Source: Escherichia coli
Lineage (GTDB): Bacteria > Pseudomonadota > Gammaproteobacteria > Enterobacterales > Enterobacteriaceae
Length of the DNA: 64,000 bases
NCBI RefSeq assembly: GCF_003334385.1
Contig: NZ_QOWN01000005.1
Reading direction: 5' to 3' (one strand)
Position numbers: made by a program. Each line of letters begins with the position of its first letter. Within the stretch, counting starts at the first letter, position 1. This document shows, piece by piece, positions 58,901 through 61,900 of this stretch.

Positions 58901-61900
58901 AACCAGTTATCCGATACATTTGCAATTCTGGATGCGCCTGGATTAGAAGGCGCGCATATTAATGGACAAAAATACAACCGAACAAACAGCAAAGGCCAGG
59001 TTGTTTACGACCCGATTATACCTCATCGTGAAAACCATCTGGTACTTGATATAGCAAACAGTGAAAGTGAAACAGAATTGCAGGGCAATCGTCAAATTAT
59101 TGCGCCTTACCGTGGAGCAGTTTCTTATGTGCAGTTTACAACTGACCAACGTAAGCCCTGGTATATACAGGCACTGCGTCCCGATGGTTCGCCATTAACC
59201 TTTGGCTATGACGTACTGGATCTCCAGGAAAACAATATTGGAGTCGTTGGCCAGGGTAGTCGCCTTTTTATTCGCGTAGATGAAATTCCAACTGGCATAA
59301 AAGTTGCTCTCAATGATGAACAGAATTTATTCTGTACTATTACTTTTCAACACGTTATCGATGAAAACAAAACATATATATGCCAGTAAAAGGAGTTTAC
59401 TATGAAGTGGCTTTTATTAATCACCTTGAGTCTATATTCTTTTATTGTGCAAAGTGCTCCCTGTGCATTGACCAATGTCGGGGAACAACGTGGAACATAT
59501 ATACTCAAGCCACTGAGTATGAAAGGTAATCTCACCGCCGAAAAAATTGAAAACACCGGAAATATCATTGAGTGTGCAGACTTACAAGAGACGACCAACG
59601 CCATTAAAGTTCATTTTTTAACACAGAACGCTTTAAGGTTTAAGGTTTAAGGTTTAAAGTCGGAAGTCGTCATTATATTATTAATTTCCCCTTTGAATCT
59701 GACGGTAAAAAAATAGCGCTTCCAGGGAAGTCATCTTATAATTTAGAAGAAATGCTATCTGCGATAAATTTCACCATTCCATACTCTATCGCATCTGTAT
59801 CAGATAGTTCCAACACCGCAGATATTTTTCCAGGAACTCCTTTTCCTTTGTTGTTCGAAATTGAAGTGAGTTCATGTACAGGGAATAATACTAATTGTAA
59901 TAGCGCCCGCTTTAATTTTAATTTAAATACTATTTTACAGGTAAATTTAATGACCTGTGGTTTTGAAGATCAATCCATCGACACTGGACGATTTGTACTG
60001 TCTCGTATCAATAATGAAAATTATCAGTTTCATCATATAAGATTTGACTGCATCCAGGGCGAGCAAGGTGAATTAGTTTTTGAACCCAGTGATGTTGAAT
60101 ATTACTTTGAACCAGTGACGATACAGGAGTCAGGAACCAGCATATTAAAAAATGAGTTAGAAAACAGTGAGGACGGTGCGGGTCAAGTAGGCTTTCAACT
60201 CTCCAATGATGGTACGAATGAAATCCAGTATGGTAAAAGCAATTACTACTCTTTTCAGCATCCCCATGAAGGAAGTAATCAGATTCCTCTGTTTATTCGC
60301 CCGCGTACATATGGAAACAATGTCTCAAGCGGGCAAATAATGAGCCGAGTCAAAATCGTGGTAATGTACAACTAATCTATCTCCCCCACCTTAACTTTGG
60401 GGGAGCTGCCGATTAACGTGCTGCTGGACTAAAAAGCGCAGAATAATCCGTATTGCAGATTCGCTGTACCGCCGGGTGCTGAATCATCCGCTCAGCAAAA
60501 ATAGCATGATACTCTTCCATCACATTCTCGACGCGACCAATTTCTACGACAGTTTTATCGGCATAAAAGTCATATGCATAAAGCGTTGGGGCAACGAAGA
60601 TTGCATTGTGCATCGCACCAAAAGCTTTCATCAACGCGGCATCATCAAACTCGCCGAGGATTTCTACGTTTAATCCCTGGGAGTTAAACCAGTTAAGCAA
60701 TTTACGCCCTAACATTGAACGTCGTCCAGGAATCAAAAGCCGCCGGTCTTCCAGACAAGCCGGGAACGGTTTTTCCGGTGGTGGATTTGTACACCAGAAG
60801 CTCACGCCACATTCGCCAATTCTCACGGAGAACAGGCCTTCCTGCTGCGTAGAATCTATCGGACAGTCGGAAATGATCATATCCAGTTTATGCTGGCTTA
60901 ATTGCTCCAGCAGCATTTCGTGGGTGGATTCGAAGCAGCGAAGATGAATCGGTTCGCCTTCTACTACTGCAGCATTCAGCACGCTACTGACCAGGCGTTT
61001 GGAAAGTGCATCAGCCACGCCAACGTCAAACAATAAATTGGATTCTTTGCGATAGTTCACGATATCCAGCATTTCCTGGCTTAAGGTGAACATTTTATCG
61101 GCATAGCGATAGACCAGCTCTCCCAGCTCGCTGGGTTCGAGACCACGTCCCTTGCGCTTAAATAATTTGCCTTGCAGGCGCTCTTCCAGCGCCCGAATCT
61201 GTCCGGTAATGGTTTGTGGTGTTAAATAAAGCGCCTCCGCTGCGCCAACCACAGAACCTTCTTTATAAACATGCCAGAAGTAATACAAGTGGTTGTAATT
61301 GATATGAGACATGCTCATTTCTCTCCCTGATAACAATGAAAAGGGAGCCGTTTATGGCTCCCCGGTAAACCGTCCTGTCACACTGATGGACGCAAACGAA
61401 CGCGTAACCAGCTGTATCCAATTACCGCCGAAGAGATAGAACCGACCAGGATACCGAGTTTCGCCCAGTTAATCAGTTCTGGATCTACGCTACCAAAGGC
61501 CAGGCTGGCAATAAAGATAGACATAGTAAAACCGATACCGCACAGGATCCCCACCGCCATAATTTGCTGATAAGTCGTTCCCTCAGGCAGATGCGCCAGT
61601 TTCAAACGCAGCGCCAACCAGCAGAACAGACTAATCCCCAGCGGTTTGCCAATCAGCAAGCCAGCGATGATCCCCAATGGCAGAATGGAGGTCAAGCCAT
61701 CCAGCGTGACACCTTGCAGTGAAACGCCAGCATTAGCAAATGCAAACAGCGGTAAAATCAGATACGCCACCCACGGGTGCAACACATGCTCCAGTCGCTT
61801 CGCTGGAGAACGCCCATGCTTCTCTTTCAAAGGAATAAAGAAGCCGACAATTACCCCCGCCAGGGTTGCGTGAACCCCCGATTTCAACACCGCAGTCCAC

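Follow-up and report, generated by a model that had tools for sequence, protein, structure and literature searches.

We analysed a 64,000-nucleotide stretch of Escherichia coli DNA (the window; RefSeq assembly GCF_003334385.1, contig NZ_QOWN01000005.1), which carries a fimbrial tip-adhesin gene interrupted by a 7-bp tandem repeat. An open reading frame (ORF) scan places a gene island between flanking ribF, rpsT, nhaR, and nhaA, with the adhesin gene sited between nhaR and rpsT, beside espX1. The adhesin gene is a pseudogene of 974 bp (59402..60375, plus strand) that measures 960 bp (319 codons) when intact, as judged from its ORFs, its intact orthologues, and its predicted fold. Of 5,426 complete E. 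coli genomes, 4,223 contain the segment, 3,633 of them with at least 80% coverage. The locus is OI-1: it lies at the same site, is collinear with that of O157 strain NZRM4165, and is orthologous in sequence. Reviews of enterohaemorrhagic E. coli define OI-1 as z0020-z0025, a putative fimbrial cluster (PMC10877973, PMC9387321).

The adhesin gene is split into two ORFs. ORF1 (59402..59650, plus strand) is an 82-amino acid N-terminal stump that comprises the signal peptide and the start of the receptor-binding domain. ORF2 (59752..60375, plus strand) encodes 207 amino acids, which cover what is left of the receptor-binding domain together with the complete pilin domain. Both pairs of coordinates are the same in our ORF scan as in the initial annotation, and the strong ribosome-binding site that it had assigned to ORF1 is indeed present, as a Shine-Dalgarno-like AAGGAG (59390..59395, plus strand; read from the sequence) 6 nt before the ATG at 59402. 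ORF1 terminates at a TAA (59648-59650) within the repeat array. The frame of ORF2 is open from 59644, inside the array, with no start codon before the ATG at 59752.

Tandem Repeats Finder reports the array at 59632-59657, with a period of 7, 3.7 copies, 100% matches, and the unit TTTAAGG. There are three perfect units (59632..59652, plus strand), followed by an imperfect fourth, TTTAAAG (59653..59659, plus strand; read directly), which carries a fourth TAA. In 100 dinucleotide-preserving shuffles, no match to the array appeared even with two mismatches permitted, and alignment with one- and two-copy genomes gives a single unit as the ancestral state. Counted relative to ORF1, the TAAs at 59634 and 59655 are both in frame 1, that at 59641 is in frame 2, and that at 59648 is in frame 0, so all three frames are occupied.

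Only one copy number leaves the gene open. We rebuilt the gene in silico with zero to eight heptamer units (n = 0-8), and the frame stays open throughout, over 319 codons, at n = 1 alone; the n = 0 rebuild is out of frame, and every rebuild from n = 2 to n = 8 runs into a stop at codon 83. Natural one-copy alleles of 960 bp (O145 RM8995, the B strain, and NMBU-W13E19) encode the reconstructed 319-amino acid protein, so that the predicted effect of removing two units, the joining of both ORFs into one of 319 amino acids, agrees with the rebuild and with nature alike. The one-copy orthologues tested hold a single 319-amino acid ORF and not two separate ones. It had further been proposed that three or more copies put a stop in every frame. 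This is true of the array, but the threshold is too high: two perfect copies suffice to close all frames because the imperfect TTTAAAG also carries a TAA. RefSeq annotates the identical allele of strain NH-21 as “fimbrial family protein, frameshifted.” Among 34 evenly spaced full-length matches, 17 have a 1007-bp span and a coding sequence that is not flagged as a pseudogene; three of these 17 loci were checked directly. This suggests that about half of the sampled genomes keep the adhesin gene open.

The 319-amino acid protein is predicted to be a putative FimH-like two-domain tip adhesin. Searched by itself, it has no Pfam match even at E ≤ 10, only a 13-bit match in NCBIfam, and nothing beyond hexokinase noise in a single-sequence PDB search. 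Its family is tiny, with 44 representatives at E ≤ 0.001 among the 1.84 billion searched. Pfam Fimbrial (PF00419) is matched at E ≤ 0.001 by five of the 13 full-length family members and at E ≤ 0.1 by nine. A PDB search with the family profile returned fimbrial proteins only; every alignment fell in the C-terminal part, mostly to the pilin domain of FimH (best E = 0.016). In the family alignment, C181 and C212 are invariant, and the penultimate Y318 is nearly so.

Structure prediction of the 319-amino acid fusion yields a FimH-like two-domain fold. The AlphaFold model has two beta domains (mean predicted local distance difference test score, pLDDT, 83.3). Its top eight Foldseek matches are full-length FimH or FocH, followed by PapG, CfaE, LpfD, and CupB6; E-values to full-length two-domain tip adhesins range from 5e-10 to 1e-5, and pilin subunits align to the C-terminal half of the model with target-normalised template modelling (TM) scores of 0.6-0.72. 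Like these six adhesins, the protein combines a signal peptide with a beta-rich receptor-binding domain at the N terminus and a pilin domain at the C terminus, is about 320 amino acids long, and is encoded after an usher gene. It differs from FimH-type adhesins in that it is only 11-14% identical to solved adhesins and lacks a Pfam match of its own. The label “fimbrial adhesin-like” in the initial annotation is supported by operon position, transitive homology, and predicted fold, and the claim that such a gene is interrupted by expansion of a 7-bp repeat withstands comparison with both orthologues and fold.

An identity with YhlD or YehD was raised by the Yeh-like operon described below and is ruled out by sequence, fold, and distribution. 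No adhesin receptor-binding domain, the YehD and YhlD entries included, was matched in PDB sequence searches even at E ≤ 10, and the receptor-binding domains of 9N4G and 8V9V are absent from the top 50 Foldseek matches. The model contains only short helices (110-116 and 195-200) and no large two-helix flap such as that of YehD/YhlD. YhlD is reported to be nearly restricted to phylogroup E (PMC12778044), whereas the adhesin gene studied here is carried by about two thirds of complete E. coli genomes. We found no usable name for the adhesin locus in the text of the Wurpel 2013 fimbrial catalogue.

A single heptamer prevails among E. coli genomes. Our census used a 229-nt query centred on the array, for which the identity band shifts with each unit, against the 5,426 complete genomes. 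About 3,640 of these hold the array site, and about 98% of them have n = 1 (3,560 genomes in the one-copy band). Three copies occur only in NH-21, which matches the query at 100% identity over 229 bp, and about 57 genomes have n = 2, comprising one phylogroup-A-like clade and one independent singleton. Thus, the proposed count of copies in orthologous loci finds one copy to be the rule, with three copies confined to NH-21 beside the window. The 95-99% identity band contains 65 records, partial matches among them, and 56 listed genomes span the 221-223 bp of n = 2. Some two-copy genomes span one base less than other two-copy genomes. With a four-copy synthetic query, the best match was again NH-21 (n = 3), with 58 genomes in the two-copy band, and with a zero-copy synthetic query it was a one-copy genome. 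Neither n = 0 nor n ≥ 4 was found among the approximately 3,640 site-bearing complete genomes, and a scan of Joint Genome Institute (JGI) metagenome contigs found no arrays of three or more units.

Direct reading of individual loci gives three copies in NH-21; two in ATCC 8739, SCU-104, N9, and 1008S19; and one in O157, O145, EC5502, TK3888, and NMBU-W13E19. Genomes of the two-copy clade come from many hosts. Because three separate ATCC 8739 assemblies, one of them laboratory-evolved, all have n = 2, the tract is stable on laboratory time scales. In B-strain genomes, the unit reads TTTAAGA instead of TTTAAGG (G to A at window position 59651); the gene is intact there, and the dimer is less perfect.

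The copy-number alleles are nested within one lineage. A single haplotype of single-nucleotide polymorphisms (SNPs) spans the adhesin gene in the window, in NH-21, and in the n = 2 genomes. The same haplotype occurs in CUVM53 with n = 1 and an open ORF of 317 amino acids that is annotated as an intact coding sequence; its only other difference in the gene is the in-frame loss of one of two TTTAAT units (59911..59922, plus strand, by alignment). We polarised linked SNPs with six more distant genomes. CUVM53 has the ancestral base at 56236, 56709, and 58170, where the window and two-copy SCU-104 are derived, and derived bases at 54825, 54861, and 54945 are common to the window, NH-21, and SCU-104. 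The simplest reading of these SNPs is a nested history from one to two to three copies that needs no contraction. The first step would have taken place in a phylogroup-A-like sublineage, and the second on the branch to the window and NH-21. We also considered the single copy of CUVM53 as a contraction; this is unneeded, as CUVM53 keeps the ancestral bases at the linked SNPs. Strain A1 has n = 2 on another haplotype, with a 1-bp deletion also present in one-copy TK3888, and its allele is unique in the collection. The A1 expansion is thus independent, and it arose in a gene already frameshifted.

The adhesin gene stands at the end of a chaperone-usher operon, most of which is missing from the window. 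In complete loci (O157 NZRM4165 and NMBU-W13E19), the gene order is rpsT, espX1, fimbrial protein (177 amino acids), chaperone (227 amino acids), usher (816 amino acids), and adhesin gene, after which nhaR follows on the opposite strand; all four operon genes are intact in NMBU-W13E19. The usher scores 1493 bits against NF011763 (NCBIfam cut-off 933). The chaperone scores best against Salmonella StcB (8e-99) and the major subunit against YehD (3e-36), each below the curated cut-off. Judged by these profiles and the gene order, this is a minimal Yeh/Stc-like four-gene chaperone-usher operon, an architecture described for Yeh and Yhl (PMC12778044). The Yeh/Stc/Yhl gamma-4 pili share the minimal four-gene arrangement and differ in chromosomal locus.

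BLAST against the complete NMBU-W13E19 operon as reference maps a 2.44-kb deletion that took the major subunit gene, the chaperone gene, and usher codons 1-373. A 1332-bp C-terminal usher remnant (58058..59389, plus strand) covers profile positions 438-826 of NF011763 and ends with its stop codon at 59387-59389. At the junction (58058-58060), the spacer between espX1 and the operon is fused directly to usher codon 374. The same junction, reference position 2236 joined to 4679, is present in the window, EC5502, TK3888, SCU-104, ATCC 8739, the B strain, and A1. The identical junction on several haplotypes marks the deletion as a single old event. It predates the expansion, because one-copy genomes of other haplotypes (EC5502, TK3888, and B95) share it. 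The usher is truncated in all 40 of the best long matches to the window; we read the sequence of five of these matches through the array, and all five have n = 2. Every locus with n ≥ 2 that we examined lacks the major subunit gene, the chaperone gene, and usher codons 1-373. With subunit, chaperone, and the 5′ part of the usher deleted, this locus cannot assemble a pilus; since the deletion came first, the expansion hit an operon that was already non-functional.

The closest well-known counterpart is OI-1 of O157:H7, which has the same site and gene order at about 97% DNA identity. O157 OI-1 keeps all of the assembly genes, whereas the window has lost the subunit, the chaperone, and usher codons 1-373. 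The O157 heptamer site holds one copy, the ancestral form of the window array, and the adhesin gene of O157 is broken elsewhere, by a change from A7 to A8 in a poly-A tract, whereas that of the window is broken by three heptamer units.

Other lesions of the adhesin gene are varied. The poly-A tract (59707..59713, plus strand, by alignment) has the in-frame length of A7 in the window and is A8, with a frameshift, in O157 and independently in two-copy strain N9; it is a second, independent slippage hot spot in the gene. An A6 run (59541..59546, plus strand, by alignment) has lost one base in TK3888 and A1, where the resulting frameshift leads to a stop after 72 codons. EC5502 has a nonsense change after codon 260. 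K-12-type genomes (e.g., ER1709) have lost the adhesin gene except for its final 138 bp, which adjoin the insertion sequence (IS) IS1A. An IS1A also lies near rpsT in NH-21, but it points the other way, and the deletion there is not that of the K-12 type. Derivation of the K-12 remnant from an NH-21-like IS1 insertion was considered and rejected, as the IS1A orientation is opposite and both the rpsT distances and the nhaR alleles differ. IS1 has hit the island independently several times. Taken together, multiple independent lesions are what one would expect as a signature of relaxed selection.

One of the truncated products is a protein with a name of its own. The O157 poly-A frameshift leaves an N-terminal ORF of 108 amino acids and a C-terminal ORF of 227 amino acids. 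The 108-amino acid ORF (NZRM4165 locus 6023-6349) is exactly AAG54320.1, “hypothetical protein Z0021,” of EDL933. According to reviews, motility is repressed in the presence of Z0021/FmrA and abolished by its overexpression, and they describe Z0021 as a regulator only (PMC10877973, PMC9387321). By this exact match, FmrA is the N-terminal stump of the OI-1 adhesin gene left by the change from A7 to A8. ORF1 of the window equals the first 82 residues of Z0021/FmrA with one substitution. The 82-amino acid product, which any n ≥ 2 allele of the window haplotype would give, is found on at least 1000 contigs in a larger protein collection, and the 207-amino acid product of ORF2 has a database entry as an ATCC 8739 hypothetical protein.

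We consider it very likely that the array arose by replication slippage on an imperfect 7-bp dimer and was fixed by drift in a non-functional operon. The ancestral sequence GC-TTTAAGG-TTTAAAG-TC is such a dimer and could seed slippage. Misalignment of the nascent strand by one unit would add one TTTAAGG, and a second slip would yield the allele of the window and NH-21. With one TAA per unit and a period of 7, successive units would put a TAA into successive frames. The expansion would have been selectively neutral or nearly so, the older deletion having already relaxed selection, and ORF1 and ORF2 are probably without expression or function. Of the two readings offered in the initial annotation, it is the inactivating slipped-strand expansion that gains support. 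The change came in steps, from one to two to three copies, and not as a single two-unit event.

Several observations weigh against slippage followed by drift. One, two, and three copies occur on one gene haplotype without SNP differences; because copy number varies without SNPs, the array must mutate faster than point substitution accumulates, and contraction back to n = 1 at a low rate is possible. The adhesin gene is intact in about half of the sampled genomes, including some with a truncated operon (B strains and CUVM53), which could reflect residual selection or recency. The O157 stump is Z0021/FmrA, and by analogy a truncated product is not necessarily inert. Finally, the adhesin might possibly be assembled by a paralogous chaperone-usher system such as Yeh.

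The same rapid change in copy number could be read as the mark of a phase-variable contingency locus, in which heptamer slippage toggles the adhesin between ON (one copy) and OFF (two or more). Simple sequence repeat (SSR) contingency loci are known in Haemophilus, Neisseria, Campylobacter, and Helicobacter. The array resembles them in being a short tandem repeat within the 5′ portion of the coding sequence of a surface adhesin, where such tracts are classically found, and in that strain differences in copy number abolish translation; moreover, copy numbers 1, 2, and 3 share one SNP haplotype, and A1 has expanded independently. The differences are more telling. SSR contingency loci have long tracts, whereas the array never exceeds three units in the approximately 3,640 genomes and its ON state is free of perfect repeats. 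Since every unit brings a TAA with it, no allele with n ≥ 2 is open, frame cycling is impossible, and there is one ON number only. The parsimonious history consists of expansions alone, with n = 0 and n ≥ 4 not found. The one-copy state holds in about 98% of site-bearing genomes, and the two-copy allele is fixed both across a clade (about 57 genomes) and in the three ATCC 8739 assemblies. Furthermore, the partner genes for assembly had been deleted beforehand in the n ≥ 2 genomes examined, leaving no pilus to switch. We thus consider a contingency locus, the second reading of the initial annotation, to be quite improbable.

A different kind of selection might act on the truncation itself, if the lesion gave rise to a small N-terminal peptide that is secreted and holds down flagellar motility. 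Truncations at the heptamer, the poly-A tract, and the A-run (82, 108, and 72 amino acids) would then be alternative routes to one motility-lowering peptide, and ORF1 would have come out of a broken adhesin as a working FmrA-like gene, retained when the rest of the operon disappeared. The exact identity of the O157 stump with a reported motility repressor points this way, as do the near-identity of ORF1 to its first 82 residues, the strong ribosome-binding site that ORF1 has kept, the recurrence of early stops after 72, 82, and 108 codons across lineages, and the occurrence of the 82-amino acid product on at least 1000 contigs. However, the gene is also commonly hit late (the stop after codon 260) or lost altogether (K-12), and about half of the sampled genomes appear to keep the full gene. 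Early truncations are to be expected in any case, as the slippage-prone tracts are located there, and the motility phenotype might arise secondarily, through envelope stress that a misfolded pilin fragment provokes. Both the selected truncation and the idea of alternative routes to one peptide therefore seem quite unlikely to us. Short tandem repeats are sometimes mis-assembled, but a sequencing or assembly artefact is extremely improbable: the three-copy allele recurs in the independent complete genome of NH-21 (100% over 229 bp), the two-copy allele in about 57 independent assemblies, and the 26-bp array is far below any read length. Equally little can be said for programmed recoding, whereby a frameshift on T-TTA-AAG-like heptamers would yield the full-length adhesin. 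TTTAAAG does fit the X-XXY-YYZ form of -1 slippery sites. However, the zero-frame stop (59648-59650) precedes TTTAAAG (59653-59659), the intact gene reads TTT-AAA-G, which is the wrong phase, and the three-copy allele would need a +1 or -2 shift while avoiding TAAs in every frame. Slippage with drift in a dead operon is the explanation we prefer, and we conclude that the adhesin gene of the window is an ordinary pseudogene in decay, with no support for a contingency switch.

The neighbouring espX1 gene is also disrupted. This gene (56391..57811, plus strand), which encodes a type III effector with pentapeptide repeats, is frameshifted in the window by a 1-bp deletion after 56655, as seen from the ORF scan and comparison with other genomes. 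The deletion is common to SCU-104. Intact espX1 genes are found in O157, O145, EC5502, and NMBU-W13E19, and IS1-interrupted ones in B strains, CUVM53, and ATCC 8739. At the end of the window (63306-64000), directly after mokC/hokC, lies an IS421 element (IS4-like), and its insertion site is common to NH-21 and CUVM53; the last 1500 bases of the window, including IS421, are 100% identical in both genomes. The B strain has an IS421 annotated at about the same place, and EC5502 has none. A scan of 57700-60500 for promoters and terminators found sites no more numerous than in shuffled sequence.

Other repeats occur elsewhere in the window. A 268-amino acid ORF on the minus strand (17319-18125), which is a single open frame here, contains pentapeptide-like repeats (..GANPDGANLDGAILDGATVNGA..) that correspond at 17368-17559 to 15-bp tandem repeats with 3.7 and 6.5 copies; we take this ORF to be the yabP/yabQ region, which is split in K-12. 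An array of 85-bp units (9599-10034; 5.1 copies, 97% matches) has a consensus like that of repetitive extragenic palindromes or bacterial interspersed mosaic elements (REP/BIME), and an array of 90-bp units (41826-41998; 1.9 copies) has a consensus that resembles REP/BIME intergenic repeats.

The OI-1 locus, the RefSeq pseudogene status, and the class of mutation are already known. A literature search on the repeat sequence found no paper, and the heptamer polymorphism and its history from one to two to three copies appear to be undescribed but unremarkable. In terms of annotation, the 82- and 207-amino acid “hypothetical proteins” of ATCC 8739, which recur on hundreds of further contigs, are the halves of one pseudogene. 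Copy number (1, 2, or 3) can serve as a simple lineage marker in the phylogroup-A-like sublineage that includes ATCC 8739. Most usefully, the origin of FmrA as an adhesin stump bears on how its reported mechanism is interpreted. The broader significance is modest: the locus offers a datable case of the stepwise growth of a short imperfect repeat that kills an AT-rich accessory gene under relaxed selection, and it illustrates that a repeat unit containing a stop codon makes a poor switch.

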